From: Myxococcales bacterium
GTDB lineage: Bacteria > Myxococcota_A > Polyangia > Palsa-1104 > JAEUJZ01
Direction of reading: 5' to 3'
NCBI GenBank assembly: GCA_016794365.1
Contig: JAEUKB010000025.1
Span: 52,693 to 116,692 of the forward strand
DNA length: 64,000 bases
Below the pieces are notes generated by a model. It ran no database searches and was not told the DNA's origin. It was given only the letters and a program-made list of their open reading frames with translations. Positions within the stretch are counted from its first letter, which is position 1; each line of letters starts with the position of its first letter. Position numbers and translations under genes: made by a program. Positions 5,761-57,603 of this stretch are shown piece by piece.

Positions 5761-5957
5761 AGGGTCCAGACCTGGTCCGAACTACACGAGCAGCAGTTGA
5801 GATAGGGTCCAGACCCAGTCCGAACTACACGAGCAGCAGTTGAGATAGGGTCCAGACCCAGTCCGAACTACACGATCAGCAGTTGCGGCATGGTCCCGAC
5901 CCAGAGCGAACTACACGCTCAGCAGTTGCGATAGGGTCCAGACCCAGTCCAAGTGGC
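5761..5957. repeat. 43-bp tandem repeat array (~4.5 units), each unit carrying a GGGTC-NN-GACCC palindrome
   Basis: Unit agggtccagacccagtccgaactacacgagcagcagttgagat repeated head-to-tail with few substitutions; lies between convergent genes (VOC + / flavoprotein -). Confidence 0.85.
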
Positions 5958-5967
5958 TTGCGATGCA

Positions 5968-7647
5968 CTACGCGGAGGGCTTGGTCGGCTGTAGCTCTGG
6001 GTGCGCGTAGACGCCCCCGGCCAGCGAGCGAACATTGTAGCCGTGCTGGGCTAAGATGCGGGCGGCGAAGTAGCTGGTCTTGCCGTGTGCGCACAGGGTA
6101 ACGACCGGCATGCCCTGCTCCAGGGTCGGCAAGGCGTCTCGCAGTGCGGCCAGCGGGATGTTGCGGGCTCCTTCCACCGGCAGCTCCTGAGCGGCTGCGG
6201 CTCCCCGTACATCGACAAGCTGGATCCCGGGCTCTGTCGGCAGCGCAGAAACAGGGCGGACCAGCTCATCGCGCTGGTTGGTTGCCGCAAAGCCCGCCAC
6301 GTTCACCACATCCTTGGCGCTACCGAAGGGCGGAGCGTAGGACAGCTCCAGGTGAACCAGGTCGTCAATCGTCAGCCGACCGCGCAGCGCGGTGGCCAAG
6401 ATGTCCAGCCGCTTATCGACGCCCGCACCGCCGTAGGCTTGCGCACCCAGCACATCGCCGCTCTGCGGATCCCACAAGAGCTTGAGCGTGACCGACTCTG
6501 CCCCGGGATAGTACGAAGCATGCGACGAGCCCGCCACCAGCGTCACGCGGTAGTCTCGCCCAAGGGCCCGCAGCCGCTTTTCAGACAAGCCCGTGACACC
6601 TGCCGTCAGCGCAAACACCCGGACAATCGCCGTCCCCAGCGAGCCCGGATACGGCAGCGCCTTTTCCCCCAGCACAATGTGGTCGGCGCAGGTGCGACCC
6701 TGACGGTTGGCCGGTCCGCCGAGCGGGACGTTGGTCTGCTCTCCGGTAAACAGGTCGGGCGTTGCACAGACATCGCCGAGCGCATAGATCAGCGGATCGC
6801 TCGTCTGCAAGTAAGCGTTGACCGCAATGTGACCACGCGGTGTCAGCGCCAGGCCCGCTTCTTTGCCCAGGCGCGACTCCGGCACCACTCCGATCGACAG
6901 GATCACGGCACCGACCACGATGCGCTCGCCATGGGATGTGATCGCGCAGACGGGTTCGTGGGGCCGCTCGCTGGCTTCAAAAGACACAATCGCGGTGCCC
7001 AGCCGCAGCGCAATACCCTGGCGAACCAGCTCTTGCGCCAGCGGGGCCGCCATGTCCGGGTCGAGCGCGGGCAGCACCTGCGGCTGAAGCTCCACCACAT
7101 GGACGCGCTTGCCCAGGTGCGCAAGCTGCTCGGCCATCTCCAGTCCGATAAAGCCTGCGCCAATCACCAGCACCGACTCCACCTCTTCCACCGCGTGCTT
7201 GATCCGGTCCATGTCCTGCAAGCTGCGCAGGGTCAGGATCTCGGGCCGGTCGATGCCAGGCAGCGAGGGCCGAAGTGGAGCCGCACCCGGTGCCAAGATC
7301 AAATGATCATAGGGAAGCTGCGACTGCTGGCCGCTGCGCAGGTCCACCACCGTCACCGTACGGGTGCTGCGGTCGATGTGCGTGGCTTCGGTCTGGGCGC
7401 GCACGTCAATGTGCAGCAGGCTGCGCAGCGAAGCAGGCGTCTGAATCGTGAGCAGGGAGCGATCGGCAATCTCGCCCCCGATGTGATAGGGCAGCCCACA
7501 GTTGGCAAACGATACGTCGGGCCCGCGCTCCACCAGGGTGATCTGGGCAAACTCATCCAGGCGGCGAAGCCGTGCCGCCGCCGAGGCTCCTCCCGCAACG
7601 CCACCGATGATCACGACACGACGGCTGGGAGTTTTTGCATTCAACAT
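5968..7647 (-). CDS. CoA-disulfide reductase / NADH oxidase-like FAD-dependent pyridine nucleotide-disulfide oxidoreductase with C-terminal rhodanese domain
   Basis: VVIIGGVAGGASAA FAD motif, redox-active Cys in SFANCGLPY, second GAGFIGLE NAD motif, C-terminal rhodanese with CAHGKTS active-site loop. Start moved to the internal ATG (M69 of the ORF), which is preceded by AAGGAG. Confidence 0.8.
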   Translation of the reverse strand: MLNAKTPSRRVVIIGGVAGGASAAARLRRLDEFAQITLVERGPDVSFANCGLPYHIGGEIADRSLLTIQTPASLRSLLHIDVRAQTEATHIDRSTRTVTVVDLRSGQQSQLPYDHLILAPGAAPLRPSLPGIDRPEILTLRSLQDMDRIKHAVEEVESVLVIGAGFIGLEMAEQLAHLGKRVHVVELQPQVLPALDPDMAAPLAQELVRQGIALRLGTAIVSFEASERPHEPVCAITSHGERIVVGAVILSIGVVPESRLGKEAGLALTPRGHIAVNAYLQTSDPLIYALGDVCATPDLFTGEQTNVPLGGPANRQGRTCADHIVLGEKALPYPGSLGTAIVRVFALTAGVTGLSEKRLRALGRDYRVTLVAGSSHASYYPGAESVTLKLLWDPQSGDVLGAQAYGGAGVDKRLDILATALRGRLTIDDLVHLELSYAPPFGSAKDVVNVAGFAATNQRDELVRPVSALPTEPGIQLVDVRGAAAAQELPVEGARNIPLAALRDALPTLEQGMPVVTLCAHGKTSYFAARILAQHGYNVRSLAGGVYAHPELQPTKPSA

Positions 7648-7844
7648 GACCGGGCTCCTTTGGAGGACAGGAATCGGACCCATGCGGATCGCGACGTGCA
7701 GCTTGTGGCTGCTGCGCCGTCCGTACGTCGCATGGGGCCCGCTTCCTGTAGAAAGAGCAGGAACTGTACCAGGACGCGCTGCGCAGTCGCTTCGTCGCTG
7801 TCCGGTCAGACCGGGAAGACCCGGTGCCCGGTGGTGGCTCGCCT

Positions 7845-7890
7845 GTTTCAACTGCGTGTTTCATATCGAAACAGTGCAGCTGAAACAAAG
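7845..7890 (-). terminator. nested inverted repeat (possible terminator of the small peptide gene or a protein-binding site)
   Basis: gtttcaactgcg...tgtttcatatcgaaaca...tgcagctgaaac: inner perfect 6-5-6 palindrome inside an 11/12 outer stem; no U-tract, so weak as an intrinsic terminator. Confidence 0.25.
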
Positions 7891-7905
7891 GCGAGCGCCT
7901 CCTGA

Positions 7906-8091
7906 CTACTTCTTGTCTCCAGCCGGGGCTGGGCCTTTGCCGTCCTGACCCTTGGGGGCCGAGTCGGTCTTTTTGTCATCCTTGGGTGCCGTCTTTTCAT
8001 CCTTGGCCGGGGTCGGTTCGCTGGCGCGTGCTGCCGTCATCGAACCAAACGCAAACAGACCGACCAGTGTAGCGAGCGTCATCTTGTTCAT
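7906..8091 (-). CDS. small secreted Lys/Asp/Pro-rich peptide (61 aa precursor, ~38 aa mature)
   Basis: Sec signal peptide (LATLVGLFAFGSMTAARA/SE); AAGGAGA RBS 7 nt upstream of ATG; low-complexity K/D/P-rich mature part; sigma-54 promoter candidate upstream. Confidence 0.5.
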   Translation of the reverse strand: MNKMTLATLVGLFAFGSMTAARASEPTPAKDEKTAPKDDKKTDSAPKGQDGKGPAPAGDKK

Positions 8092-8165
8092 GGCTGTCTC
8101 CTTGTGAGTAAGTGGGCACAGACTCGGTCTGGGACCGTGTCGAGCCCGGTGTCAGCCAAGTGCTA

Positions 8166-8182
8166 GAGCACTCGTTGTGCCA
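8166..8182 (-). promoter_or_regulatory. sigma-54 (-24/-12) promoter candidate driving the small secreted peptide gene
   Basis: On the minus strand the sequence reads TGGCAC-aacga-gTGCt with canonical GG/GC spacing, ~60 nt upstream of the 8091 start and immediately downstream of a sigma-54 activator gene. Confidence 0.4.
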
Positions 8183-8247
8183 AGGTGTTTGTCGTCGCTG
8201 CGCAGGCCCACTTGGGTCCGCTGCATCGGGAATCGAGCCCGGCTGTA

Positions 8248-8305
8248 CGGGAAAATTTCCTGATCCCCGTTGAAAATCATCCAGCGACCGCGCGGGAAAA
8301 TTTGC
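8248..8305. promoter_or_regulatory. two copies of near-palindromic cGGGAAAATTTsC spaced ~45 bp; candidate enhancer (UAS) for the NtrC-type regulator
   Basis: cgggaaaatttcc at ~8248-8260 and cgggaaaatttgc at ~8293-8305, 65-140 bp upstream of the sigma-54 -24 element. Confidence 0.3.
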
Positions 8306-8401
8306 AGCTCGCTTCTTTCGTACCTGGCTTCGCGCACCCGGCTGCGCGGCGACCTGGGGCTTTGGGGGCGACATCGGCCCCGCGAAACACCGAGTCACAG
8401 G

Positions 8402-9763
8402 CTACGGCTTCTCTTCCGACAGCCAGTTGTAGAGCGTCTTGACATCCACCCCCAGCTTTTCCGCCGCTTGACCACGATGGCCACCTACCTGCGAGAGCGC
8501 CCACGCTGCATAGCGCCGCTGGATCAGGCGAATCGGCAAGATGTCTCCCTCCAGCGAAAACGGCGTGCTGGTCCCCGATGGTCGCAGCGTGGACGGTAGA
8601 TCACTTACACCCACTTCTTCGGATCGTCCCAGCACCACCAGTCGCTCCAGAACGTGAGACAGCTCGCGCACGTTGCCGGGCCACTCGTAGTCCAAGAGGC
8701 GCTGCATCACCTCGGGGCTGACCCGCTGCACCGGAGACTGCGGATGCCGGACCCTGTGCTCATGCAGAAAGTGGCCAATCAGGATCGGAATGTCTTCACG
8801 GCGATGCCGCAGCGCGGGCAGGTGAACCGAGATCACATCCAGCCGATAGTAGAGATCTTCGCGAAAGCGACCCGCTTTGACCGCTTCCCGCAGGTCGCAG
8901 TGCGTGGCCGCGATGATGCGCACGCTCACGCGCTGGGGACGATTGGATCCGACCGGACGAACCACGCCTTCTTCCAAGACGTGCAGCAGCTTGACCTGTA
9001 GCGCGGGCGGTAGATCGCCGATTTCATCGAGAAACAGGATGCCGCCGTGGGCCTCTGCCACCAGTCCTTTGCGGGCTTGGGTTGCGCCGGTAAAGGCTCC
9101 CTTTTCGTGACCGAACAGCTCACTTTCCAGCAGGTGCTCGGGCAGCGCACCGCAGTTGATCGCAACAAACGGACCGCCTGCCCGCAGCCCTTCGGCATGG
9201 ACAACGCGCGCAAACAGGCTCTTGCCGGTTCCTGTTTCGCCCCCGATGAGCAGCGGAACGTCCGCGCCGGACACCCGATCGAGCAGCTCAAACAGCGCGA
9301 GCATCGCTGGACTTTGCCCAATCAGCCCGGTCCGTCCGTTCTTTTCCCGTAGTGTCACCCGCAGCGCACTGGCTTCCCGCCGCACCTTCGCTTCATCGAG
9401 CGCTCGCCGCAGAAAGATCACCAGCTCTTCGATCTTGAACGGCTTGGTCAGGTAGTGCGCAGCGCCTTGACGGATGGACTCGATCGCACTGTCGATGGCC
9501 CCGTGTGCGGTCATGATCAGCACCGGACGCTCGGGAGCCTGCCGCCGGGACTGGGTCAGCAGCGCCAGACCATCGACATCCGGCATGCGCAGGTCCGTCA
9601 CCAGTGCGTCAAACGGCTCTCGACCGAGCAGCGCGGCGGCTTTCTTGCCCGATCCGAGTGGCACTGCATCAAAGCCATGGTCGGTCAGACCTTCGGACAG
9701 GACCTCGGCCATCGCCAGGTGATCATCAACGACTAGGACGCGGGGCCGGACTTCACTTGGCAT
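8402..9763 (-). CDS. sigma-54-dependent response regulator (NtrC family: REC + AAA+ + Fis-type HTH)
   Basis: Receiver LVVDDH...D, Walker [15 protein letters not shown] sigma-54 contact motif, [16 protein letters not shown]-terminal HTH. Start set at M37 of the ORF (overlaps the HK stop by ~11 nt). Confidence 0.9.
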
Positions 9764-11168
9764 GCTCTTCCTCTGGCAAAACGGGCAGTGCGATGTCGGC
9801 GCAGGTTCCACCTTCGGCCCGAGGCGCAATCGCCAGCGTGCCGCGATGACTTTTGACAATCTCGTGTGCAATCGCCAGCCCGAGCCCTGTGCCTTGACCC
9901 GCTGGCTTGGTGGTGAAAAACGGCTCCATGGCGCGCGCGGCGGCCTCCGGGGAGATGCCCGCCCCGCTGTCGATGACCTGAAAGATCACCTTTCCCTCTG
10001 CGATGCGTACGACCAGCTCGACGCAGGATGGACTTGTGGACTTCGCGGTGCAGGCATCGCAGGCATTGAGCAGCAGGTTCACCAGGGCATGCTCCAGCAG
10101 GCGCTGATCGCCACGCAGCAGCGCTGGCGTCGTCGGCTCATCAAGCAGCAGCGGCACCCCGGCTTCGGAAAAGCGATGCTCCACAAGCGACACCGCGCCA
10201 TGGACCACCGCATGCGGCGTCAGCACTTGGGCCGCGACGTTCTGGCCGCGCACAAGCCCGAGCAAGCCGCAGATGATCTGACTCATGCGCTCGGCCTGTT
10301 CCAAGATGACGCGGACGATGCGGAGGTTGCGATCATCGCCTGCGACCTTGGACTGAAGCTGCTCGGCCCGGGCGGTGATGATGCCAAGCGGGGTCGATAG
10401 CTCATGCGTGATGCCCATTGCCAGGGTTCCCATCGTGGCGGCTCGACTGGCGCGCTCTAGCTCGGTATCCCGTCGGCGTCGTGCATCCTCTACCAGCAGC
10501 GAGTGCTGGGCCCGCAGCTCGCGCTTCTGCCCCCACAGCGCAGCTCCACCGAGCAGCAGCATCGCTCCGGCAGCCACCAGCACTGCCAGCACCATCCGCC
10601 AGCTTGCGGCATTTTCCCGATCCCGGGCGCGATATACCGTCGCCACTGCCGCGACCCAGAAGATCTGCTGGCCAGGTGTCTTTTGAGAAGCCAGACCGAC
10701 CACCGCCGCGCGCCGTGGCAGCCGCAGCCGTCCCGCCTCCTCACGAGACATGCGCAGGGTTGTTTGGCCACCATGCACCGCTTGCAGCAGCGTCTCACTG
10801 GCGAAGGTCTGTCCATCGGGCGCATGAAACACCGTCTCACCGGGGGCCAGTACATAGATCGCGAGCGAGCCGGGCTGTTCAATCTGGGCCAGACCTTGCG
10901 CAAGCTGCGCGATCGGTAGCGTCTGGGGCCGCGCGACGGATTCCGGTCTTTGGGCAGACCACAGCGCGATGCGTGCAGACAGCTCACTGGCCAGGCTGCG
11001 AGCCAGCGTCTCTTGGGCGCGCGCATACTCGGACAGCGACTCTGCGTAGCGCCACTTGACATCCTGATACGTCAGCAGGGCCACCGTAGATATCGCAACG
11101 ATCATCAGCACGATCAGCACGCCGGTGCGATGCCAGGGCCTAGACGGGGACAGCGGGAACTTGGTCAC
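9753..11168 (-). CDS. sensor histidine kinase (2 TM, HisKA + HATPase_c)
   Basis: H-box ITHELSTPLG, N/G1/G2 boxes (LLLNACDA, DSGAGI, GTGLGLAI). The long ORF's N-terminal ~330 aa is low-complexity and overlaps the TolC gene on the other strand, so the start was moved to an in-frame GTG preceded by GGAGAG; start uncertain. Confidence 0.75.
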   Translation of the reverse strand: MTKFPLSPSRPWHRTGVLIVLMIVAISTVALLTYQDVKWRYAESLSEYARAQETLARSLASELSARIALWSAQRPESVARPQTLPIAQLAQGLAQIEQPGSLAIYVLAPGETVFHAPDGQTFASETLLQAVHGGQTTLRMSREEAGRLRLPRRAAVVGLASQKTPGQQIFWVAAVATVYRARDRENAASWRMVLAVLVAAGAMLLLGGAALWGQKRELRAQHSLLVEDARRRRDTELERASRAATMGTLAMGITHELSTPLGIITARAEQLQSKVAGDDRNLRIVRVILEQAERMSQIICGLLGLVRGQNVAAQVLTPHAVVHGAVSLVEHRFSEAGVPLLLDEPTTPALLRGDQRLLEHALVNLLLNACDACTAKSTSPSCVELVVRIAEGKVIFQVIDSGAGISPEAAARAMEPFFTTKPAGQGTGLGLAIAHEIVKSHRGTLAIAPRAEGGTCADIALPVLPEEEHAK

Positions 11169-11386
11169 GAGCGACTCTCCAGCGCGCCAGCTTTTGCGCG
11201 ATTCAAAGCAATGGACAGGCCAACAGCGTGGTCGTCTAGGGGACAGTAGATCGCAGCAGCTTGGGCAGCCGATTCGGGAAGTTTTGCCGATTTCGTTCGG
11301 CAATTTTTCCCGGTGCGCTGGCCGGTGCGGCGGCTGTTTGTGCGGTGTAGCGACGGTCTGAACGGGATGTACGCCCGCTGGATACC

Positions 11387-11402
11387 TGGCATGTCCTATG
11401 CA
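11387..11402 (+). promoter_or_regulatory. weak sigma-54 promoter candidate upstream of the efflux operon
   Basis: TGGCAT-gtcct-aTGCa with correct GG/GC spacing. It is very close to the annotated TolC start, which would imply a downstream start codon; uncertain. Confidence 0.25.
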
Positions 11403-11416
11403 CGACAGGGTCTTCT

Positions 11417-12931
11417 GTGGATGCCAACAGGATGAGACCTTCGCTTCCCTCTGTGGTCCTTGCGTGGGCTGCTTCGCTGCTGCTGGGTGAGCATGCTGCC
11501 GCACAGCGCGGACCCGATTCGGCTGCGTCTGTTTCTGTTCCAGCGCGCGCGCAGCAAGCGGCTGCGGCCACTCCTGCGGATGGAAAGACACAAGCTGCTG
11601 CAACGACGCCGGATGGACGGTCGCGAGCGATCCCGGTGCTGTCTCTGTCCGAGGCGCTGACCTATGCCGCCCGACATCAGCCATCGCTTCAAGCGGCGCG
11701 AGCGCGGATCGAAGTGGCGCGGCGCAGTGTCTCGGTGGCGTATGCAGAGTGGCTGCCGCAGCTGGGAGCCACCGCGCAGCTGTTTGGCGGCACGATGAAC
11801 AACAGCACCGCGATGTTTTCTTCAGTGCGGACGATGGATCTGCCGCGCATCGGAGGAAGCAAGTCCCCGACCGAGGTGGATCTACAGGAAGCGTATCCAT
11901 CGACGCTGGTGGGCATCGGTCTGCGACAGACGGTGTTTGACTTTGGCCGGATTGCTGCGCAGGTCGCGCTGGCGGATCACGAGGTCCGCATTGCGTCTCA
12001 TCGCGTAGAGCTGGAGCAGCTAGAGCTGGGGCTCGCGGTGGAGAGTGCCTACTACGCAGTGCTCGCGGCCAAGGCGGTCGAGCGTGCGGCCCAAGAAGCC
12101 TACGCTCGCGCGGTGCTGCGGATGGAACTGGTGCAAGCGGGGGTGGCGCGGGGTCTGCGTCCGCCAATTGATCTGACGCGCGCAGAGGTGGATCGCACCC
12201 GCTTTGATGTGGGAAAGACCCGGGCGCGTGGAAACATCGAGCTGGCCCAAGCGCAGCTGGCCGCCGTGGTGGGATGGACGGAGCCGCTGCTTGATGCGCA
12301 GGACGTAGAGCCAGATGATGAACAGCCGCTGCCGCTGCTTGGGGAAGCGTTCCAGCGCGCGATCGATACCGAGCCGACGGTGCGCGTGGCCGTGGCGCGG
12401 CTTGTGCAGCAGCAGACCGTGACGCGCCAAGCGCTGATGCAGTGGATGCCCAGCTTGCAGCTTACCGCGAGTGTGAGTGGACGGGCGGGAGGAGCTCCCC
12501 TAAGCAGTGGGCCATCGGGCTTTTCTGGCTGGGTTCCTGAAGTGGCCAACTGGGATGTCGGGTTGGTGCTGTCGGTTCCGATCCTTGACGGAGTCCTGAT
12601 CGCGAAACGGAATCAGAGCCACGCGCAGGAGGAGGTGCTTCGGCACGAAGTCGATGCAGCGAAGCGACAGGTCTTGACCAACGTAACCCGCGCGTTTACC
12701 GGCTTTCAGCTTGCACGGGAATCGCTGCGGGCCTTGCGAAGTGCTGCGAGTGCGGCGCGCCAAAACTACGATCAAGCGAGCGCACGGTTTCGCTCTGGTC
12801 TGGCCTCTAGCATCGAGCTGGCGGATGCCGAAGCACTGCGGACAGAGGCCGACATTCAGCTTGCGATTGGACGCTTTGAGATTGCACGCAGCCGGGCTCT
12901 GTTTCAGCGAGCGCTCGCTGCCGGTCTGTAA
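11417..12931 (+). CDS. TolC-family outer membrane efflux protein
   Basis: Signal peptide, two OEP repeats (SLSEALTYAARHQPSLQAA... / LTRAEVDRTRFD...); first gene of an OMP-MFP-RND operon. Confidence 0.85.
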   Translation: MDANRMRPSLPSVVLAWAASLLLGEHAAAQRGPDSAASVSVPARAQQAAAATPADGKTQAAATTPDGRSRAIPVLSLSEALTYAARHQPSLQAARARIEVARRSVSVAYAEWLPQLGATAQLFGGTMNNSTAMFSSVRTMDLPRIGGSKSPTEVDLQEAYPSTLVGIGLRQTVFDFGRIAAQVALADHEVRIASHRVELEQLELGLAVESAYYAVLAAKAVERAAQEAYARAVLRMELVQAGVARGLRPPIDLTRAEVDRTRFDVGKTRARGNIELAQAQLAAVVGWTEPLLDAQDVEPDDEQPLPLLGEAFQRAIDTEPTVRVAVARLVQQQTVTRQALMQWMPSLQLTASVSGRAGGAPLSSGPSGFSGWVPEVANWDVGLVLSVPILDGVLIAKRNQSHAQEEVLRHEVDAAKRQVLTNVTRAFTGFQLARESLRALRSAASAARQNYDQASARFRSGLASSIELADAEALRTEADIQLAIGRFEIARSRALFQRALAAGL

Positions 12932-13006
12932 GTCGCGGCGCTGCCTTGTCCGATTCCTGGCCGAGTCCTTTGGGGTTCTGGCCGAGTCCTTTCCATCGAG
13001 GTTGTC

Positions 13007-14146
13007 ATGTCTACACCCAGTCTGTCTGCTCCTTCCTCGCGACTGCGCGTGCCGCTGTTTTTGGGCCTTGTGGTCTGTCTGCTGATTGGTCTGCTTGCGC
13101 TGCTACAGGCGCGCGCGCGATCGAACACCAACCAAGTAGCGCTCGATTCCACTCCCAAAGGAGTCACAGTGACCAAGGCTGTTCGCGCTACGTATCGACC
13201 ATCGCGTCGCTATGTCGGAACGGTTGCGCCGTGGCTGGAAGCGCGGATCGGACCGCAGATGACTTCTGCCTATGTGGACACTGTGCTGTTGCGACCCGGA
13301 GTGTACGTAAAGCGCGGTCAGGTGCTGGCTACGCTCGACTGTCGCAACGCATCCGAGCAGAGCAAAGCCTTGGCGATGCAAGCACGCGCGCTGCACGCCA
13401 CCCAAGAAGCGCTGGCCAAGGAAACGGGGCGCGTCTCGGGTCTACTGGAAGGTGGCTATGTGTCTCCCAATGAAGTGGATCGGCGCGTCGCGGACAGTGC
13501 CAGCAAACAGGCCGAGCTGCTGGCGGCCAATGCTCGTCTGGCGCGCGCATCACTGGAAGTCGATGACTGTGTGCTGCGGGCTCCGTTTGATGGGGAAGTG
13601 GCGGAGCGATTCCTCGATCCCGGCGCGTTTGCGCGGCCCGGAGCGCCGATTCTGTCTGTGGTCGATCGCGAGCAAGTTCGCATCCTGATCGATGTTCCAG
13701 AGACAGACTTTGCGGTGGTGGAAGTGGGCGCAGAGGCCAAGGTTCGCTTTCTGGCACTGGGGACGGAGCTGGTTGGCAAGATTGCCCGGCGCGCACCCAC
13801 TGCCGACAGCGTCACCCGCACCATTCATGCCGAGATCGACCTGCTGGATGCGCAGCGCAAGATTCCGGTCGGAACGACTGCGGAGCTTACGCTGCACGTT
13901 GGACAGCCAGTGCCTGCGAGTGAGCTGCCGATACGTGCCGCTGCCGTGCGTGGAGAGCAAGCCACCCTGTTTGTCGTGTCTGATGACATCGCGCGCAAGC
14001 GCAAAGTTCCGGTCTTGGGGGAAGTCACCGGGAGTCTGTTTCTGCCGCTTGATGCACTTCCGCCCGAGACGCTGGTGGTTGTGGAAGGTCGCGCGCTGCT
14101 CAGTGATGGGGATCGCGTACTTACCAAGCAGGAGTCACGGCCATGA
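13007..14146 (+). CDS. efflux RND transporter periplasmic adaptor subunit (HlyD/MFP family)
   Basis: N-terminal TM anchor, biotinyl-lipoyl-like hairpin motifs (RGQVLATLD, coiled coil), beta-barrel domain; 4-nt overlap with the RND permease. Confidence 0.85.
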   Translation: MSTPSLSAPSSRLRVPLFLGLVVCLLIGLLALLQARARSNTNQVALDSTPKGVTVTKAVRATYRPSRRYVGTVAPWLEARIGPQMTSAYVDTVLLRPGVYVKRGQVLATLDCRNASEQSKALAMQARALHATQEALAKETGRVSGLLEGGYVSPNEVDRRVADSASKQAELLAANARLARASLEVDDCVLRAPFDGEVAERFLDPGAFARPGAPILSVVDREQVRILIDVPETDFAVVEVGAEAKVRFLALGTELVGKIARRAPTADSVTRTIHAEIDLLDAQRKIPVGTTAELTLHVGQPVPASELPIRAAAVRGEQATLFVVSDDIARKRKVPVLGEVTGSLFLPLDALPPETLVVVEGRALLSDGDRVLTKQESRP

Positions 14147-17100
14147 CGCGGCTTTCGCTCAAGAACCCGATTGCGATCCTGATGCTGAGCCTGGCGCTGA
14201 TCGTGTTCGCTTCTGTGATCGTTCAGCGCCTGTCGATCGATACCTTTCCAGAGCTGACTCCGCCGGTTCTGGTGGTGGGAACGCTGGCACCGGGACTGGG
14301 TCCCAAGGACGTAGAAAAGACGATCACCTGGCGGATCGAAAAGTACGTGAGTGCGACCCCCGGAGTGGATCACGTCCAGAGCTTGTCTCGTAACGATCTG
14401 TCGGTGGTCTATGTCTGGCTCAAGTGGGGGACGGACCTAAACGCAGCGCAGACCTTGGTGCAGCAGCAGGTCGCGTTCGCGATGGCAGCGGTTCCCAAGT
14501 CGCTCGGGGTGCTGCCTCCGTTTGTGCTTCAGTACGATCCGTCGAACGCACCAGTGATTCAGATCGCAGTATCGGGAGACGGCTTTACCGGACCACAGAT
14601 CTACGACTATGCCCAGAACGTCATCGAGCCTGTGATTGAAGGGATCGCGGGTGTTGCCAGCGCGTCACCCAATGGCGGTCGGCAGCGGCAGATCAACGTG
14701 GTGGTCGATCCGGTGCGCGCTCAGGCTCGCGGGCTGACTTCAACCGATGTGGCAGCGGCTGTGGCCCAGACGACCGCGCTGCTTCCTTCGGGCAAGTTCA
14801 TCAACCCACGCTTCGACGCCAACGTCTACACCAACGCAGTCCCAGAGCACGTTCGTCAGATCGGCGAAGCGGTGGTGAAGCAGCGAGCGGGCAAGCCGGT
14901 TCTCCTGCGTGATGTGGCGCGCATCGAAGATGGCGGTGCGGTGGAGACCCAAGCGGTCGCGATCAACGGCAAAGAAGCGGTGTACCTGAACGTGCTGCGG
15001 GTGCCCGGAGGCAACACGCTGGCGATTGTCGATGCGGTCAAAGAAGCGGTGGCGGCGATGCAAAAGACCCTGCCGCCTGGCTTGACCGTGCGCGCGATTT
15101 TCGATCAGTCCACGTTTGTACGAACCAGCTACGAAGGACTGCGCAAAGAAGTGGTGCAGGCACTCGTGCTCATCGCGATCGTGATCCTGATCTTTTTGCA
15201 GAACCTGCGCGCGGTGCTGATCGCGGTGCTGTCGATTCCGATCGCGTTTGCGACGATTCTGCTGGTGCTCTACGCGACTGGACAGACGCTGAACGCGTTT
15301 ACGCTGGGAGGTCTGACGCTGGCGATGGGACCGCTGGTGGACATCTCGGTGGTGGTGCTGGAGTCGATCCATCGTCATCGTCACGGCAGTCGTAGCGAAG
15401 AACAAGCGGCGCTGCATGGCACAAATGCGGTGGCGCTGCCTGCGCTGGCTGCGACGCTGACCACGATTGCAGTGCTGATTCCGGTGCTGCTGCTGGCGGG
15501 CCTGGCCAAGAAGCTGTTTGCTCCGCTGGCGCTGACCGTGGCGACCGGGATGATTGCGGGCTATGTGGTGAGCATGGCGGTGACTCCGGTGGCGTGTCGC
15601 TATCTGCTCGGTCACGGAGAGCCCGGACCGCTGGCTCGCTTTGTCGAAGTGCGCATCCAGCGCCTGGCCGACTGGTATGTGCGACTGCTGCGTGCCACGT
15701 TGGCCTTTCGCGCGGTCCTGATTGGCGGGGCGGTGGTCCTGATTGCGGCGAGCGGTTACTTTGCGTCGCAGCTCCCCAGCACGTTCTTTCCCGAGATCGA
15801 CGAGGGCATGGAGCGCATCTATGTGCGGCTGGCTCCGGGTACGTCGCTGACCGAAGCCCGTCGTCAGATCCTTGCCATGGGCGAGCGACTACAGCGCGAG
15901 TTGCCCGCAGGCTCCGTCAGCTTGGTGCTGGCCAACATTGGATCGCCGCAGAACGCGCGCTCGGCCATGAACAGCCCCAACGCCGGTCCGCACATGGGCT
16001 TTCTTCGCCTGGAACTGAGCGACGCCGCGCATCGCAAGCACTCGCAGCGAGAGATCGCCGATCAGGCCCGGGCGATCCTGACCCGTCACTATCCTGGGGT
16101 CAGCTTCCTTCAGTGGCCCGGCGGCCTGGTCGCCAGCGTCTTTGCCAACGGCTACCTGGCCCCGCTGGTGGTCGAGCTGCGTGGTAGCTCACTCGACGAG
16201 CTGTACGAGCAGTCGCAGGCCATCGCCGAGGTCGCTCGCTCTGTCCCTGGCGTTCGCGACATCACCCCGCAGCTTCAGATCGACTACCCCGAGGTCCGCA
16301 TCGAGCTAGACCGCGCCCAGGCGGGTATGGTCGGTGTGCCGCTGCGCAGTGCGGCCCAGACCACCTTGGAGGCCACGATTGGCAACATCAACTCGCCCGG
16401 CATCTGGGTCGATGGCTCAAATGGCCAGTCCTACTACGTCGTCACCACGTATGACCGCGAGTCCATCCGCGATCCCAGCCTGCTTTCGCAGGTTCCGGCC
16501 CGCTTGTCTGAGCGTGGCATCGCGGTGGCGCTGGGGACGTACGGCAAGGTGCGCCGCTCGCTGGGGCCGATCGCCATCGAGAGAAACCAGCTTGAGCGCA
16601 CCGCCACGGTCTTTATGCAGACCGAAGGCCGGGACATCGGCAGTGCCGCAGCCGAGCTGGAAGCCAAGCTCAAGTCATCATCCAAGACCGCCGGGCTTCA
16701 CTTCCGCTTTGTGGGCCAAGTCGAGCTGATGCGCACCACCTTTGGCGGCATCGGCATCGCCATCGGCTTGGCCGTGATGGTGGTCTTTATGATCATGGCG
16801 TCGCAGTTTCAGTCCTTGCGGCTGCCGCTCATCATGCTGCTGTCGATCCCGGGGGCGCTGGTCGGCATCGTGCTGGCGCTGCTGGCGGCGGGGCAGGGTT
16901 TTTCGATCACGGCGCTGATGGGCGTGCTGATGGTCGTCGGCATTGCTGTGTCAAACGGCATCCTGCTGGTCGATGCAGCCAGTCAGCGTGTCCAGGGGGG
17001 CGAGTCCTTGCTGGAAGCCGCCTTGTCCGCTGCGCGGGTGCGCTTTACGCCAATCGCGATGACCAGCTTGGCCACCATCATTGGCCTTCTGCCGACCGCG

Positions 17101-17244
17101 CTGGGACTTGAACATGGTGCCGAGTCGAACCGACCGCTCGCCCTGGCCGTGGTGGGAGGGCTTTCGACCGCAACGCTGCTCTCGCTGTTTCTGGTTCCCG
17201 CCCTGTTCACCCTCATCGGCAAGCCCGAGCAGCCTGCGCCGTAA
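14143..17244 (+). CDS. efflux RND transporter permease subunit (AcrB/CzcA superfamily)
   Basis: 1033 aa, 12 TM topology with two large periplasmic loops; characteristic N-terminal MTRLSLKNPIAILMLSL... and TM4 GPLVD...VVLES motif. Confidence 0.9.
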   Translation: MTRLSLKNPIAILMLSLALIVFASVIVQRLSIDTFPELTPPVLVVGTLAPGLGPKDVEKTITWRIEKYVSATPGVDHVQSLSRNDLSVVYVWLKWGTDLNAAQTLVQQQVAFAMAAVPKSLGVLPPFVLQYDPSNAPVIQIAVSGDGFTGPQIYDYAQNVIEPVIEGIAGVASASPNGGRQRQINVVVDPVRAQARGLTSTDVAAAVAQTTALLPSGKFINPRFDANVYTNAVPEHVRQIGEAVVKQRAGKPVLLRDVARIEDGGAVETQAVAINGKEAVYLNVLRVPGGNTLAIVDAVKEAVAAMQKTLPPGLTVRAIFDQSTFVRTSYEGLRKEVVQALVLIAIVILIFLQNLRAVLIAVLSIPIAFATILLVLYATGQTLNAFTLGGLTLAMGPLVDISVVVLESIHRHRHGSRSEEQAALHGTNAVALPALAATLTTIAVLIPVLLLAGLAKKLFAPLALTVATGMIAGYVVSMAVTPVACRYLLGHGEPGPLARFVEVRIQRLADWYVRLLRATLAFRAVLIGGAVVLIAASGYFASQLPSTFFPEIDEGMERIYVRLAPGTSLTEARRQILAMGERLQRELPAGSVSLVLANIGSPQNARSAMNSPNAGPHMGFLRLELSDAAHRKHSQREIADQARAILTRHYPGVSFLQWPGGLVASVFANGYLAPLVVELRGSSLDELYEQSQAIAEVARSVPGVRDITPQLQIDYPEVRIELDRAQAGMVGVPLRSAAQTTLEATIGNINSPGIWVDGSNGQSYYVVTTYDRESIRDPSLLSQVPARLSERGIAVALGTYGKVRRSLGPIAIERNQLERTATVFMQTEGRDIGSAAAELEAKLKSSSKTAGLHFRFVGQVELMRTTFGGIGIAIGLAVMVVFMIMASQFQSLRLPLIMLLSIPGALVGIVLALLAAGQGFSITALMGVLMVVGIAVSNGILLVDAASQRVQGGESLLEAALSAARVRFTPIAMTSLATIIGLLPTALGLEHGAESNRPLALAVVGGLSTATLLSLFLVPALFTLIGKPEQPAP

Positions 17245-17245
17245 A

Positions 17246-17494
17246 GGGTGAAGACCCCGCGTGAAGTGGGCGATGAGGGAATGAAGAAGGGTCGCGACCC
17301 CGTACAAAGTGGGCGATGAGGAAGTCAGGAAGGGTTGCGACCCCGTACAAAGTGGGCGATGAGGAAGTCAGGAAGGGTGAAGACCCTGTGCCAGGGGGTC
17401 GATGAGGAAGTCAGGAAGGGTGAAGACCCTGTGCCAAGGGGTCGATGAGGAAGTTAGGAAGGGTGAAGACCCTGCGTGAAGTGGTCTTGAGCGT
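17246..17494. repeat. 43-bp tandem repeat array (~5.8 units) related to the 5761-5957 array; units contain GGGTCGCGACCC (perfect 12-bp palindrome) or GGGTGAAGACCC
   Basis: Units agggtSRmgaccccgYRYRRRGTGGGCGATGAGGAAGTCAGGA repeated head-to-tail; between convergent genes (RND permease + / ppsR -). Confidence 0.85.
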
Positions 17495-17510: not shown

Positions 17511-18353
17511 TCAGTGCATGGGCGTGCCGGTGCGCTGGTGGTAGCTGCGCAGGACATCGGCGGCGGTCTCTTCGATGGCTTTGCCGGTGACATCAACGAC
17601 CGTCCAGTCGGGATGGCTGCGGAGCAGGTCGCGGGCGAAGTAGATCTCGCGCAGGATGTAGTCGCGCTGGCCGTAGCTGGTGTCGGTGGTCATGTGGATG
17701 CGCAGCAGGCGCTCGCGGCGGATTTGCAGCAGCGCATCGGGCTGGATTTGCAGGGCATAGACGCGCTCGGGTGGCACTTGGTCTAGCTCTGGCGGCAGCG
17801 GCAGGTCGAGCACCAGCGGGACGTTGGCGACGCGGTAGCCTTTCTGCGCCAGGTAGATCGACAGCGGGGTCTTCGAGGTCCGGCTGATGCCGAGCAGCAC
17901 CAAGTCGGCCTTGATCAGGTTTTCGGGACAGCGGCCATCGTCACTTTGAACGGTGAACTCGATGGCTTCCATGCGCCGGTAGTAACTGTCGGACACGGTG
18001 TGCAGAAGTCCCGGAACCTCGCGTGGCTCGACCGACAAAAAGCGCGCCATGGTGCCAAGCAGTGAGCCAATCAGATCGACATACGGGACGCCGCGCTGCT
18101 CGCACTTGGTCTGAAGGACTTTGCGTTCCTCGCCTCGCACCAGGGTGGACACCACCAGGCCCTGGGCGCGCTGGGCATTGCCGACGACTACATCCATGTC
18201 GAGCTCGTGCCGAAGGTGAGGCACGATGCGCAGGTCGGTGGCGTCTTCGCGCAGATCGAACTGGCGCAGGGCGGCCCGGACCATCTTTTCGGCAGTCTCG
18301 CCGGTCGAGTCAGAGACGATGAAGATCGTACGCAGGAGCCCGCAGTCAGCCAT
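17511..18353 (-). CDS. ppsR: pyruvate, water dikinase (PEP synthase) regulatory protein, kinase/pyrophosphorylase (DUF299)
   Basis: IFIVSDSTGETAEK P-loop-like motif and overall PSRP architecture. Start set at internal ATG (M32), since the upstream part of the ORF is Arg/Pro-rich junk. Confidence 0.85.
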   Translation of the reverse strand: MADCGLLRTIFIVSDSTGETAEKMVRAALRQFDLREDATDLRIVPHLRHELDMDVVVGNAQRAQGLVVSTLVRGEERKVLQTKCEQRGVPYVDLIGSLLGTMARFLSVEPREVPGLLHTVSDSYYRRMEAIEFTVQSDDGRCPENLIKADLVLLGISRTSKTPLSIYLAQKGYRVANVPLVLDLPLPPELDQVPPERVYALQIQPDALLQIRRERLLRIHMTTDTSYGQRDYILREIYFARDLLRSHPDWTVVDVTGKAIEETAADVLRSYHQRTGTPMH

Positions 18354-18358
18354 GCGGG

Positions 18359-19675
18359 CTACGCTAACACCTTTAACCGGCGGCGGGGCAGGGAAGCATC
18401 GTCGGAGGACGCGGAAGCGGCGCGGTAGTCGATGACGCGGGGACACTCGGGATCAGGGTCACTGCCGCTGCCGCTGGAATGGACGGAGACCACTCGGCAG
18501 CCGCCGCGACACAGCGATAGGTAGGAGCAGCTTCGGCAGGGCTCCTGGGCGTGCTGGTGATCGCGAAACGGGGCAAAGGCCTGCGGCTCGGCGAAGTAGC
18601 GACGCAAGTCGGTGACTGGGTGATGGGTTGGATGGGCAAACGAACAGGCCGACAGTCGTCCGTCTGCGCGCGTTGCCGCCAGCATGTCGCCCCCTGCGCA
18701 GCCGTAGATCGAAAGAAAGCGCAGCAGTCGATCGTCGAGCTGGTGATGCGCCACAAACGGCACCATAGAGCAGTCGAGACGGACGCGCAGGCGATGGCGC
18801 TTGCCAAGAGCCAGCACGGTGGGCAGCAAGGTGCGGTGCTGCTGGTCGGTACAGCGCAGGGACTGATAGGTGTCCGCGCGCGCGCCTCGGCCCGCAGGCT
18901 TGAGCCGTAGCAGCTCGACTTCGCGCAGGCCGGTGCGATGGGCGTAGGCAAACAGCTCGGGCAGGTGCGGCAAGCCGATACGGGTGACGACGGTGTTGAT
19001 GCCGACATCGGGGAAGGCGCGGAGCAGCGAGCGGATGGCATGGTCGGCCTGGGCAAAGCCCGCGATGCCGCGCACCTGGGTGTATATGTCACCGATGCCA
19101 TCGACGCTGACGTTGACTTGACCGAACAGACCCCGCCGGGCCAGGGCGCAGAGTCGATCGAGGGTGGCTTGGTCGTAGAGTCCGCTGGTGGTCAGGTTGG
19201 GAATGATGCCGCGCTGCCAGCAGTGGGTGAGCAGTTCTCCGAGCCAAGGAAGGTGCGCACTCTCGCCGCCACCGAGCGCAACGTGAAAGACGCCCGCCTC
19301 GGACAGCTCGTCGATGGCGCGGCACCACTGCGAAAGTCCCCACTCGCTGGGCGCACCCTGGGGAGACGCGCCGGTGTAACAGGTTGCGCAGCCAGCCTCG
19401 CAGCGATTGGTTAGCTGGAGATGGACTTCGAGCGGGGCCGACAGCGGCACGGCGGCTTCGAGCGCGGGGGCTGGGTCATCCCACAGGCCGGGCGGCGGCT
19501 GATCGTAGCCAAGCCCTCGGGCTCTATCGCGATCCACGAAGACCAGCGCCTGCGGCCAGCCGTAGCGACCGCCAAGCTGGGCGATCCCGCCGAAGCGCTC
19601 ATAACGAAAAGCGCGCGGCGCCGGGAGGTTGCGACGACTTCGCCATCTGGTCCACGCGGCAAACACGGGCCGCAT
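18359..19675 (-). CDS. radical SAM / SPASM domain protein (peptide-maturase-like)
   Basis: CEAGCATCY CxxxCxxC cluster; C-terminal Cys-rich SPASM-like segment (CAGGD...C.F.....CRSCSYLSLCRGGC). Confidence 0.8.
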   Translation of the reverse strand: MRPVFAAWTRWRSRRNLPAPRAFRYERFGGIAQLGGRYGWPQALVFVDRDRARGLGYDQPPPGLWDDPAPALEAAVPLSAPLEVHLQLTNRCEAGCATCYTGASPQGAPSEWGLSQWCRAIDELSEAGVFHVALGGGESAHLPWLGELLTHCWQRGIIPNLTTSGLYDQATLDRLCALARRGLFGQVNVSVDGIGDIYTQVRGIAGFAQADHAIRSLLRAFPDVGINTVVTRIGLPHLPELFAYAHRTGLREVELLRLKPAGRGARADTYQSLRCTDQQHRTLLPTVLALGKRHRLRVRLDCSMVPFVAHHQLDDRLLRFLSIYGCAGGDMLAATRADGRLSACSFAHPTHHPVTDLRRYFAEPQAFAPFRDHQHAQEPCRSCSYLSLCRGGCRVVSVHSSGSGSDPDPECPRVIDYRAASASSDDASLPRRRLKVLA

Positions 19676-24945: not shown

Positions 24946-26139
24946 ATGAACGCACACGATGACGGCGGGGACCGCAAGCCCGAAACGCTGAGCCTTGATC
25001 TACGACTTGCGGCGCTTGAGGACTCACCGATCCCGACGTGGGTGATCGATTCGCGAACGATTCGCATCTTGTGGGCCAATGAGCGTGCGCTCGCGCTGTG
25101 GAACGCTTCCAGCAAACAGGAGCTGCTTGCGCGAGTGATTGAGCCGATTCCTGATGCAGTACGGACTCGACTCGATGCCTCGTTTGATAAGCTCCGCAAC
25201 GGACAGAGTCACGCAGAGGAATGGACGCTGTATCCAAGAAGCGTTCCGCATGTCGTGATGCTGCACTTTTCCGCGCTGTATCTGCCAGATGGACACTTGG
25301 TCGCTCTACAGCAAGCGATTCCGCAAGACTCCGTTGATCCACAGACACTGCGCGCAGCGGAAGCGCTGCACCATACTTCAGCAGTGGTTGCGTTTGTGCG
25401 CTTCGATGGAGAGCTGATGCAGCAAAACCCAGCAGCGCTCAAGACGTTTGGGCGCTCGGCGAAGCGCTGGACAGACTGGCTGCGTCATTCCGCAGAAGGA
25501 GTGTCTCTGTTAGAAGCTGTGGCGCGCGATGAAGCGGTGGAAGCAGAGCTGGCGTTTCAAACCCAGCACGGCATACGCTGGCACAAGGTCGAGATGCATC
25601 GTGTCCGGGATGCAGTGACTGGAGAGCTGGTGGCCCTGATTCACCAGACCGATGTGTCGGAGCGGCAGCAAGCAGAAGCAGAGCTCCTGAGCCAGTCCAA
25701 GCTGATGCATGAGCTAGAAGAAGCGCTGTCGCTTCTGGATGAACAGCGTCGTGACATCCTGTCTCTGTCGGCTCCGATTCTGGAAGTGGGAAGTGATACC
25801 TTGGCGCTGCCGCTCATTGGAACGCTCGATCAAGGTCGCTTCGGAGAGATTGCCTCGCGGCTCCTTCATCAGATCAGTCACAACAGAGCCGCGCGCGTGA
25901 TTGTGGATCTGACGGGCGCTTCGATGATGGCAGCATCGAGCGCACTGCACCTCCGTCGCTTGATAAATGCAGTGCAGCTACTCGGCGCTCATGTGATCCT
26001 CACCGGGATCAGCGCGCAGCTGGCCCAGTCTTTACAGCAAGCGGACTGTGATCTGCGCGGCGTTTCCATCTATCGCACGCTGGCCGAAGCAATCCGTCAG
26101 CACAGCACGCAGCCACAGCCGCTACGGACGAAGTCCTAA
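24946..26139 (+). CDS. PAS domain(s) + STAS domain protein (RsbR-like / anti-sigma-factor-antagonist-like)
   Basis: Two PAS-like segments followed by a C-terminal STAS domain (SAPILEVGSDTLALPLIGTLD...VIVDLTGAS...HVILTGIS). Confidence 0.75.
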   Translation: MNAHDDGGDRKPETLSLDLRLAALEDSPIPTWVIDSRTIRILWANERALALWNASSKQELLARVIEPIPDAVRTRLDASFDKLRNGQSHAEEWTLYPRSVPHVVMLHFSALYLPDGHLVALQQAIPQDSVDPQTLRAAEALHHTSAVVAFVRFDGELMQQNPAALKTFGRSAKRWTDWLRHSAEGVSLLEAVARDEAVEAELAFQTQHGIRWHKVEMHRVRDAVTGELVALIHQTDVSERQQAEAELLSQSKLMHELEEALSLLDEQRRDILSLSAPILEVGSDTLALPLIGTLDQGRFGEIASRLLHQISHNRAARVIVDLTGASMMAASSALHLRRLINAVQLLGAHVILTGISAQLAQSLQQADCDLRGVSIYRTLAEAIRQHSTQPQPLRTKS

Positions 26140-32839: not shown

Positions 32840-34081
32840 TTACGGAAGAGCGACAGGCTTCAGACCGAGCGCCGCTCCGAGTGCCCGGGTGGCTTCCTTT
32901 TCAAACGGAGCCGCTCCCGGTGCTTTGGCGCGGGCCAGCATGCCGTCGTAAAAGGCGCGCAGCTCGGTCTTGTTCATCGGACGTTCCTTTCCTCCTCCGA
33001 CCGCGATAAAAAACTTTCCGCGCGTGGGAGAGCCGTCCTTTTCGTCCTGACGAACAACCACCATCAGCGCGCCCGCCGTTCCTGTCAGGGTCCAGCTTCC
33101 GTTTCCGTGTACCGCTGTGGGGTAATAGGTCTTGAGGTCCGCTGCTTTGAACTTCGCCACCGCCGCCGGACTGGCCGGAGCCGGAGCCGCAGTCGCAGTA
33201 GGAGCCGGAGTAGGAGTCGCAACTGGAGTAGGAGCCGGAGTAGGAGCCGGAGTAGGAGCCGGAGTAGGAGCCGGAGTAGGAGTCGGAGTAGGAGCCGGAG
33301 TCGGAGTCGGAGTAGGAGTCGCAGCCGGCATGACCGGCGAGATCAGTGCGCAGTTTTTGACGTTCAGATCGACGGTGTCCATCTCTTCGACCGTCGCGCT
33401 CACCACTGCTTCGGTCGTAGACGGTAGGTTCTGAACAAATGACACGACCGGACCGGACAGACGACAGGAAACCGAGTTGAACTCGTTGCCACGGATCTTC
33501 AGCTTATCGCCCGATACCGAAGCAATCCGACCGCTGATGGTCAGCGCCTTTCCCTTGTACTTTAGCGTCGCCGCCACCGAGTTCTTCAGATAGTCCGTCA
33601 GCATGTCTTTGGCGGTTACAGAGTCTCCGCTCAGTGGCAGATTTACCGTCGCTGGGAGCACCGGATCAAGCAGCTTGATGATCTTGCAGTTTTGGAGCCG
33701 CAGTGAATACGTTCCGATCGCAGCGACTCCCGTGACCACCAGTGTCTGTCCCACCGCCAGCTTGGCCAGCTCTGGGGAATCGGACAGCGCGGACTCACAC
33801 GCGATGTAGTCGAAGTACTTGGGCGAGCGCAGATCGATCGCCGGATTTTTGCGTCCAAGCGAGTCGTTGACTGCGAAGAAGCCGTTCACACGCAGATTGA
33901 ACACCTCTAGCTGCTTGCCGTTGTAGCCAGCCGCCGCCGCGCCGCCTGTTTTTTGCGCAGCAATCAGATCGACGCCATCCACCCGCTGCGCCGTCTGCGC
34001 ATGGGCCGTCATTTCAACCAGAGACAGAAGCGCAACGGCAACACCTTGCGCAACACAGATCAGGGAACCAGTGCGAGACAT
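32840..34081 (-). CDS. secreted two-domain protein with tRNA_anti-like OB-fold repeats and PT-rich linker
   Basis: Signal peptide; two OB-fold-like repeats ([14 protein letters not shown]..., [24 protein letters not shown]); (PTPTPAPT)n linker; AGGAG RBS before the ATG at 34081. Confidence 0.6.
33165..33340 (-). repeat. coding tandem repeat (ggagccggagtagga...) encoding the Pro/Thr/Ala linker
   Basis: Seen as a (PTPAPT)n run in the - frame and as GAGVGAGVG / RSRSRS runs in other frames. Confidence 0.6.
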
Positions 34082-34210
34082 GAACACACTCCTATGCAAA
34101 GTCTACAGTAGCAAAGAGACGGCCTCATAGGTGCTTCCTTCAGCGTGCGCGCGCAGCGATTGGTACAGCGCAGTCTGTTCGTAGAAGCGCACTGTGAATG
34201 AATCGAACAT

Positions 34211-34300
34211 CCAGAACCAGACACCCAGAACCAGACACCCGGTCGTCGATCGCCAGACAGAGTCAGACAGAGTCAGACAGAGTCAGACAGAGTCAGACAC
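34211..34300. repeat. short tandem repeats in promoter region: (ccagaaccagacac)x2 and (cagacagagt)x~4.5
   Basis: Located 130-220 bp upstream of the 34081 start, downstream of the TonB receptor stop. Confidence 0.7.
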
Positions 34301-39898: not shown

Positions 39899-40239
39899 TT
39901 GTTGGACGATCTGCTTGATCGCGATCGTGTCCGTTGAATTTGAAAACGCTTTTCATTTTCTAACTGATTCAGGGTCTGTCAAGTACGAACTGCGCAAGCA
40001 GGGCTTGTCTGATCCCTGTTAATTAAGGCGAATTACCGTCGCTGATTGGTGCGGTGTGGACGAACTCTTTGCGCCAGAGCAGCCCAGATGAGATGTGGAA
40101 TTTGTCGGACCAATTTCAAGGCGCTGTGCAAGTGAACCGGGATGTGCGGACCACATGCTGCCCAGGATCGCTGTCTTACCGCTGGGTCAGTGAGCGATTC
40201 CTATCCTGTGAGTCCTGTATCTCCACAGTACATTGTAGG

Positions 40240-57585: not shown

Positions 57586-57603
57586 GTGGGATTCTGTTTG
57601 GAA

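Follow-up and report, generated by a model that had tools for sequence, protein, structure and literature searches.

What is the 43-bp tandem repeat that fills the gap between two converging genes in this genome, and what holds its unit length constant while its interior varies? We addressed this in a 64,000-nt stretch of DNA (60% GC), hereafter the window, that comes from a Myxococcales MAG. The initial annotation had placed a 43-bp array at 17246-17494, in a convergent gap between an RND permease gene (+) and ppsR (-). The array was confirmed by TRF, by the sequence and by unit alignment, and both flanking genes were confirmed by Pfam; the permease protein showed 100% identity to an NCBI protein labelled 'MAG: Myxococcales bacterium'. 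TRF reported a 43-bp repeat at 17244-17472 (5.3 copies, 87% matches, score 283), and unit alignment resolved it into five 43-bp units plus a terminal head at 17245-17472, which we term array B. The features of this locus and of a second array, array A, are listed below; arrays, units and heads carry no strand.

14143-17244, + strand: RND efflux permease (AcrB/CzcA type), Pfam ACR_tran 5.6e-208; its stop abuts array B
17245, 17288, 17331, 17374 and 17417: starts of the five array B units, leading A included; the sixth start, 17460, is that of the terminal head
17246-17257: head of unit 1, GGGTGAAGACCC
17289-17300: head of unit 2, GGGTCGCGACCC, a perfect 12-bp palindrome
17332-17343: head of unit 3, GGGTTGCGACCC, one mismatch from a palindrome
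17461-17472: terminal head of array B, from sequence and unit alignment
17473-17494: decayed partial unit on the PpsR side of array B, TGCGTGAAGTGGTCTTGAGCG, like the start of the unit 1 interior
17511-18446, - strand: PpsR/PSRP (PEP synthase regulatory kinase/pyrophosphorylase), Pfam Kinase-PPPase 3e-85
5761-5946: array A, four 43-bp units plus a terminal head (5934-5945), from TRF, head matches and alignment

Array B starts 1 nt, and its first head 2 nt, past the TAA of the RND permease gene (17242-17244), and the PpsR stop codon (17511-13) lies 38 nt beyond the end of the last head. The partial unit that follows the terminal head runs to about 17494 and resembles unit 1 (TGCGTGAAGTGG). The perfect palindrome had been assigned to units 2 and 3, which is correct for unit 2 and one base off for unit 3; the variant GGGTGAAGACCC, assigned to units 4 to 6, was indeed found there (17375, 17418 and 17461) and heads unit 1 as well. 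C5 is therefore missing from 4/6 array B heads, all of the GGGTGAAGACCC type, and the head of unit 2 is the only one in array B that matches the head motif on both strands. This motif, GGGTNNNGACCC, matched 14 times across the window, where shuffles predicted 0.33, and all but one of the matches fell in arrays A and B.

Array A was reported by TRF as a 43-bp repeat at 5761-5950 with 4.4 copies and 88% matches. It begins 1 nt past the stop codon of a glyoxalase-like gene; at the other end, 22 nt separate its terminal head from the stop codon of a gene for a CoA-disulfide-reductase/rhodanese (CoADR). The two arrays are alike in period, phase and orientation. When their interiors were compared in phase and ungapped, the mean identity was 14.75/31 (48%) against a permutation null of 8.2 +/- 1.95 (p about 0.001), and no significant similarity was found in reverse orientation. 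The proposal that the two arrays are homologous thus holds, though the similarity is weak. Both lie in convergent gaps. Of the four remaining convergent gene pairs of the window, three overlapped at their 3' ends with no gap at all (26122-26139, 44501-44533 and 49754-49757), indicating that arrays A and B make up most of the spacing at their own sites and that convergent junctions free of arrays are extremely tight in this genome.

The window contains tandem repeats of other kinds as well. An 18-bp unit is repeated 6.3 times in frame in the N-terminal region of IF-2 (880-993), and a 6/12-bp unit 24 times in frame at 33176-33321, within a 419-aa ORF that had no Pfam match. Perfect or near-perfect repeats with 10-14-bp units were found at 34254-34299, 40239-40298, 57601-57683, 63922-63967 and 34207-34240, with units such as CAGACAGAGT (x4.6), GAGAGCGAGCA (x5.5), GAAAGGAATCGC (x7) and GACAAAGGGAAT (x3.8). 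Most of the latter lie between genes of a TonB-receptor/imelysin/beta-lactamase-like cluster, where they might alter promoter spacing or be prone to slippage.

We then asked how far the 43-bp repeat extends beyond this genome. One genome per species was scanned for two heads 40-46 bp apart, a head-based pattern that gives a biased census. Among the matches listed were dozens of Myxococcota loci, including Myxococcota MAGs and Polyangium fumosum DSM 14668, the latter with some 10 units at NZ_SSMQ01000016.1 (L079 651-1108). TRF and in-register printing of the family loci revealed a common layout, n copies of a head plus about 30 nt closed by one terminal head, and every true array examined was intergenic. 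Interiors differed between arrays, even inside one genome. The head-to-head distances among the matches listed were 43 bp in 75 cases, 42 bp in 17 and 44 bp in 10, with one case each at 40, 41 and 45 bp; units inside one array are not independent, and roughly 13 independent 43-bp arrays stand behind these counts. Because the scan admitted any distance from 40 to 46 bp, the pattern does not account for the sharp peak at 43 bp. Distances of 21-22 bp formed a second mode (59 cases among the matches listed), made up of half-modules and Polyangiaceae arrays with a 21-bp period, and the period of 43 +/- 1 bp corresponds to two modules of 21-22 bp (~21.5 bp each). Two arrays were present in the 64 kb of the window; the MAG of a sister species had at least three loci and MAG-83 at least five.

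These results support the initial annotation in its reading of the repeat as a dispersed, evolving family with a fixed unit length and a variable interior, and not a local duplication: further copies exist both in the sister species (L110/L197, L007/L017 and L012) and in many other Myxococcota MAGs. Two loci of the Polyangiaceae MAG JBKQKP01 (L018 3653-3878 and L048 7427-7593) have the heads GGGTCGCGACCC / GGGTAACGACCC at a period of 20-21 bp, half the usual unit, with T-runs after some units. The literature collection searched, which is incomplete, yielded no account of such arrays in myxobacteria, so that a prior description is possible. Array B is one locus of an apparently undescribed non-coding tandem-repeat family in Myxococcota. 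The family is phylum-level and apparently unremarked until now; its kind, bacterial interspersed repeats and minisatellites, is already known.

To define what is conserved in the family, we aligned the 206 in-array heads among the matches listed. They gave the consensus GnAGGGTCnnGACCCTnC with a strict core of GGGT-N4-ACCC. Position 5 was C in 155/206 and position 13 was T in 168/206, both outside what the scan pattern had selected. The two central bases were free, and position -1, upstream of the head, was not conserved. At pair 5/8 there were 125 C/G heads and 81 departures (G/G, A/G, C/C, C/T, T/G and C/A), and not one of the 81 was a compensatory G/C, A/T or T/A. At the symmetric pairs from 6/7 out to -5/18, complementarity equalled the expectation from column frequencies for each pair. 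The initial annotation had proposed a search for compensatory changes that preserve the dyad; they did not appear at pair 5/8, and complementarity was at chance level everywhere. The conservation of the head thus concerns bases, not pairing. Moreover, a C5:G8 pair would close a loop of 2 nt, which is impossible in a hairpin, and therefore a hairpin cannot explain the conserved C5:G8.

These observations bear on whether the arrays act at the RNA level, as 3'-UTR elements of the REP/BIME sort whose head stem-loops would block exonucleases or terminate converging transcripts. The position of arrays A and B, starting 1-2 nt past a stop codon and filling otherwise tiny convergent gaps, agrees with such a role, as do hairpin plus T-run motifs in L004 (CGGGACGATGTCCCGTTTT), L093 (a terminal head followed by T7) and L018. 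However, the bare head forms a stem of just 4-5 bp (-4.4 to -7.4 kcal/mol), and single 43-nt units had no folding advantage over shuffles, whichever strand was used (z -1.07 to +1.02). Folding of whole arrays gave z values of -2 to -5.5, and we rejected this as a sign of structured RNA, since it arose only through pairing between the heads of different units. The terminator scan returned one weak terminator-like match, on the minus strand at 17301-17288, which was not above shuffle expectation. Covariation was absent, wobble-type changes favoured neither strand consistently, and arrays were also found in divergent gaps (L035 and L048). An RNA-level role is accordingly quite improbable. No Rfam family matched the window or 12 family loci at the gathering score, and E <= 10 yielded noise only; the promoter scan found no promoter-like sites. 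A candidate sigma54 promoter at TGGCAC in units 4-5 was rejected, the -12 element being absent as judged by eye.

The genomic placement of the family was examined next. Among 16 arrays with both flanks callable, using rough GC3-based ORFs as gene calls, six lay in convergent, six in co-directional and four in divergent gaps, which is near the 4/8/4 of random placement. The bias to convergent gene ends that arrays A and B seem to show was therefore not a property of the family. In the sister species the gap that contains the array is co-directional, with CoADR before the array and a TetR gene after it, and the divergent gaps of L035 and L048 are promoter gaps.

We next compared the window with the sister species, represented by L110, a locus recovered by a PpsR-based metagenome scan with 82-86% nucleotide identity to the window. 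L110 9150-9400 is the same locus as L024, from the MAG CALMML01 ('uncultured Myxococcales bacterium'). A 7-unit, 43-bp array adjoins the same CoADR gene there, and 24 nt lie between the terminal head of this array and the CoADR stop codon. The unit differs from that of the window (GGGYGWYGACCC TTCCTGAGTACTCCCAGGACCACTTTCACCA), and it contains a degenerate head, GGGCGATGACCC. The reverse complement of array B was identical to the L110 interior at 16-19/31 positions and equally similar to another sister-species array, L007/L017. Same-strand comparison with interiors of either type (the CoADR-adjacent array is array P below) gave 8-12/31, suggesting that the canonical reading direction of the repeat family is the minus strand of the window. 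Array B may be the ortholog of array P, but their flanks aligned with only about 56% identity, and array B is as similar to arrays of the L007/L017 type as to array P.

The sister species is also represented by L197, another metagenome copy, which was 98.6% identical to L110 over 7 kb. The CoADR-adjacent array nevertheless had six units in L197 versus seven in L110, and the order of unit variants was different. Such differences in copy number and variant order between near-identical genomes are consistent with unequal exchange or slippage. Higher-order patterns were seen in the arrays (a-b-b-a-b, super-periods of 86/87 bp), edge units were decayed in array B and L110, and units were ~90% alike within arrays while arrays diverged from one another. 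Comparison of orthologous sites revealed that arrays are gained and lost between relatives: a relative with 91% RND identity had no array 3' of the RND gene, and six relatives had none 3' of PpsR. In the PpsR-based scan the downstream neighbour of PpsR was different in every relative, and no clean filled/empty pair was obtained. In MAG-83, a 42-bp array of 5.4 copies with 95% matches (L200 3047-3271, JAEUKA010000024.1) has a relative in the L004 array, which lies in that MAG too (z 3.5). Each unit of the 42-bp array bears the drifted head GGCGCCGGATCGCC, and the 42-bp array is still homogeneous. The interiors of related arrays were 52-61% identical, compared with 70% at PpsR 4-fold sites. Collectively, the arrays behave as a minisatellite under concerted evolution.

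The same data are the ground for the main rival explanation, that the repeat is a functionless, self-perpetuating minisatellite. It would grow, shrink and become uniform through slippage and unequal exchange, perhaps aided by hairpins or cruciforms at the palindromic head, and be tolerated wherever genes are spared, with head and period conserved solely through descent and concerted evolution. The copy-number and order changes at 98.6% genome identity, the orthologous sites with and without arrays, the decayed edge units, the degenerate heads of array B and L110, and interior identities at or under the PpsR 4-fold-site value all accord with it. The L200 array, which keeps its 42-bp period and 95% unit identity despite its drifted head, suits a functionless minisatellite equally well, and common descent with concerted evolution could explain part of the conservation of period and head. 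Three observations weigh against this rival. The period of 43 +/- 1 bp and the 21-22-bp half-module are kept though interiors have become unalignable, where neutral drift should add indels; conservation of the 18-bp dyad consensus extends to positions outside the selection made by the scan; and the CoADR-adjacent array has been kept in both species. On balance we consider a functionless repeat unlikely, if still a serious contender.

Comparison of gene order by blastn and gene tables revealed a rearrangement at the arrays, which involves the following segment.

5968-17244, no strand: segment S2 (CoADR, sigma54 response regulator and kinase, OEP-MFP-RND)

S2 (11.3 kb) is inverted relative to the sister species between collinear outer flanks, IF2/DUF503 on one side and PpsR/radical-SAM on the other. 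The order in the sister species (L110 and L197) is radical-SAM+, PpsR+; 537-aa-, PSCyt3-, TetR-; array P; S2 from CoADR- to RND+; 341-aa-, 1189-aa-, porin-; DUF503-, IF2-. In the window, taken as its reverse complement, the order is radical-SAM+, PpsR+; array B, S2 and array A, each reverse-complemented; glyoxalase-, 330-aa-; DUF503-, IF2-. Arrays therefore stand at both S2 junctions in the window (A and B) and at one in the sister species. The distance from the CoADR stop to the nearest head is 22-24 nt in both species, and the attached array differs, apparently in opposite orientation. The junctions also bear indels of 1.5-5.6 kb, and several relatives that lack an array at the PpsR 3' end show a break in synteny at this point. 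The 330-aa protein at the end of S1 had no similarity to the 341-aa protein encoded beside the RND gene in L197. The inversion fits breakage and rejoining at palindromic heads but is no proof of it.

These junctions raise the possibility of a non-autonomous mobile or recombination element, in which the heads would be sites for an enzyme encoded elsewhere and acting in trans, such as a RAYT-like transposase or a site-specific recombinase. Each array would then be the product of successive insertions or recombination events at its heads, and recombination between heads would rearrange the genome. Crossover sites of serine recombinases are dyads with a free 2-bp centre, and the head has this form. 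The dispersal of the family, with one subfamily at different loci, points the same way, as do the inverted S2 with arrays at both of its junctions and the constant distance between the CoADR stop and the head. In addition, the GGGTCnnGACCC core is common to GTAG-tagged REPIN doublets of Clostridia and a Haemophilus parasuis REP (PMC2817692). Against this, a transposase, recombinase, Rep, dnaA, Cas or Y1-transposase domain was found in none of the 45 window ORFs, a GTAG tag is not conserved, and the repeats are direct and tandem, not inverted doublets. Solo heads outside arrays were not found in the 64 kb, bar one GGGTNNNGACCC match; the PpsR 3' end breaks synteny in relatives that lack the array; and the junction indels are such that no clean site-specific event took place. 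We regard a mobile element as improbable. A bolder version, in which a head-specific protein machine builds and keeps the arrays by measuring 43 bp (two 21.5-bp modules) regardless of interior sequence, with heads as crossovers and arrays as programmed joints that invert gene blocks in Polyangia, S2 between arrays A and B being the example, is speculative and appears improbable to the same degree.

To place the arrays among known systems, we compared them with REP/BIME clusters, with MIRUs (mycobacterial interspersed repetitive units; Supply et al. 2000, as cited in PMC3294723), with iterons and with CRISPR. BIMEs are known to serve IHF, DNA gyrase and Pol I as platforms, and they affect termination (PMC2817692). 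The arrays share with REP/BIME elements, which often lie just past stop codons, an extragenic and dispersed distribution and palindrome-bearing units at regular spacing. In contrast to BIMEs, in which unit orientation alternates, the units of array A, array B, L110 and other arrays all point the same way, head to tail, at a fixed 43-bp period. REPs have an imperfect palindrome of about 20-40 nt that forms a stable stem-loop; the dyad of the arrays spans 12-18 bp around a centre of 2 bp. REP/BIME elements have a 5' GTAG/GGAG tag and an associated RAYT gene; position -1 upstream of the head is not conserved in the arrays, and no Y1 transposase was found among the 45 window ORFs. The arrays are not excluded from divergent gaps, as REPs are.

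The loci matched by the pattern scan further included classical GTAG-tagged, REPIN-like inverted doublets (GTAGGGGAGGGTCTTGACCCTCCC ... GGGAGGGTCAAGACCCTCCCCTAC), many per genome, at L008, L013, L014, L025, L034, L039, L052 and L078, all of which are Oscillospiraceae/Clostridia MAG loci. Like the arrays, these doublets contain the GGGTCnnGACCC core, within a longer palindrome (GGGAGGGTCTTGACCCTCCC); unlike them, they are inverted, with a GTAG/CTAC tag and 9-bp stems, and form no tandem arrays. The shared core may reflect the search pattern only. The H. parasuis REP carries GGGTCTTGACCC (PMC2817692).

The arrays resemble MIRUs as direct tandem repeats in the 40-100-bp class at multiple intergenic loci. 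They also resemble them as VNTRs, the orthologous array having seven units in L110 and six in L197. MIRUs are direct tandem repeats of 40-100 bp found at many intergenic loci with strain-variable copy number; they lie inside operons in sense orientation, and their lengths and small ORFs are tied to the flanking stop and start codons. Arrays A and B differ from them in occupying convergent gaps, and the family differs in having a period that is not a multiple of 3, a palindromic head and a place in any gap type. No sequence relation to MIRUs was seen. By analogy, the arrays would function most like REP/BIME clusters; they evolve like MIRU-type minisatellites, and they appear to belong to neither.

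The fixed length and variable interior had also been likened to iterons, and a related idea is a degenerate or orphan CRISPR array. Iterons are asymmetric, are bound by an initiator and lie at one origin beside a rep gene. The arrays have in common with plasmid and phage iterons a phased direct repeat, with a module of 21-22 bp that is typical iteron spacing, a conserved core with a variable remainder, and a presumed role as protein sites; short, regularly spaced repeats with a conserved core also recall CRISPR. However, rep, dnaA and cas genes were not found in the 64 kb, the flanking genes of array B are an RND permease and PpsR, the core is palindromic, the head is merely 12-18 bp, and the many copies are scattered over dozens of gaps among ordinary chromosomal genes. 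The family was nearly absent from viral contigs (two matching stretches) and had no match in plasmids by blastn. CRISPR arrays have unique spacers, a leader and usually cas genes; here the would-be spacers are 87-92% identical inside one array. Origin iterons and CRISPR are both effectively refuted, and array B is not an iteron in the strict sense, having no rep gene or origin nearby. The broader idea behind the comparison, a phased protein-binding array, is the best inference from the sequence.

We therefore favour, with a probability of roughly 0.55, an explanation in which the arrays are lineage-wide, non-coding, palindrome-headed minisatellites of the Polyangia/'Myxococcales' MAG type, REP/MIRU-like in character, whose heads are putative dsDNA sites for a dimeric protein held in fixed helical phase. 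The argument for a protein site is threefold: base identity and not pairing is conserved; length is kept while interiors diverge to roughly neutral levels (52-61% versus 70%); and strand and gap type make no difference. The degenerate heads in some arrays, namely array B and L110, speak against it. In the proposed mechanism, each head would be recognized as double-stranded DNA by a symmetric, probably dimeric, protein, and the spacing of two and four helical turns would set the bound proteins along the same face of the double helix. The array could then serve as a binding platform or a barrier between neighbouring transcription units, and not as an RNA element, and its palindromic heads may double as rearrangement joints.

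The arrays have practical consequences for genome work in Myxococcota, where they recurrently break short-read MAG contigs. Among the matches listed, 12 of about 30 MAG-locus arrays lay at contig ends, and the short-read contigs of the window genome itself reach 45 nt into array A and 79 nt into array B before they end. Contigs ending inside arrays were L106-L109, L190-L192, L003, L005, L007, L012, L017, L024, L026, L044, L051, L083, L089 and L096; an assembly break appears to have cut one array in two, giving L007 and L017. Gene callers also make spurious ORFs from arrays, such as a 90-aa 'gene' in L200. Given that copy number varies in near-identical genomes, the arrays could be used as strain-typing (VNTR) markers. 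If the favoured explanation is true, Myxococcota would possess a class of interspersed repeat of their own, marked by a conserved dyad and by a unit length kept unusually strictly, which would point to a DNA-binding partner and to a possible role in the insulation of transcription units or in genome rearrangement.
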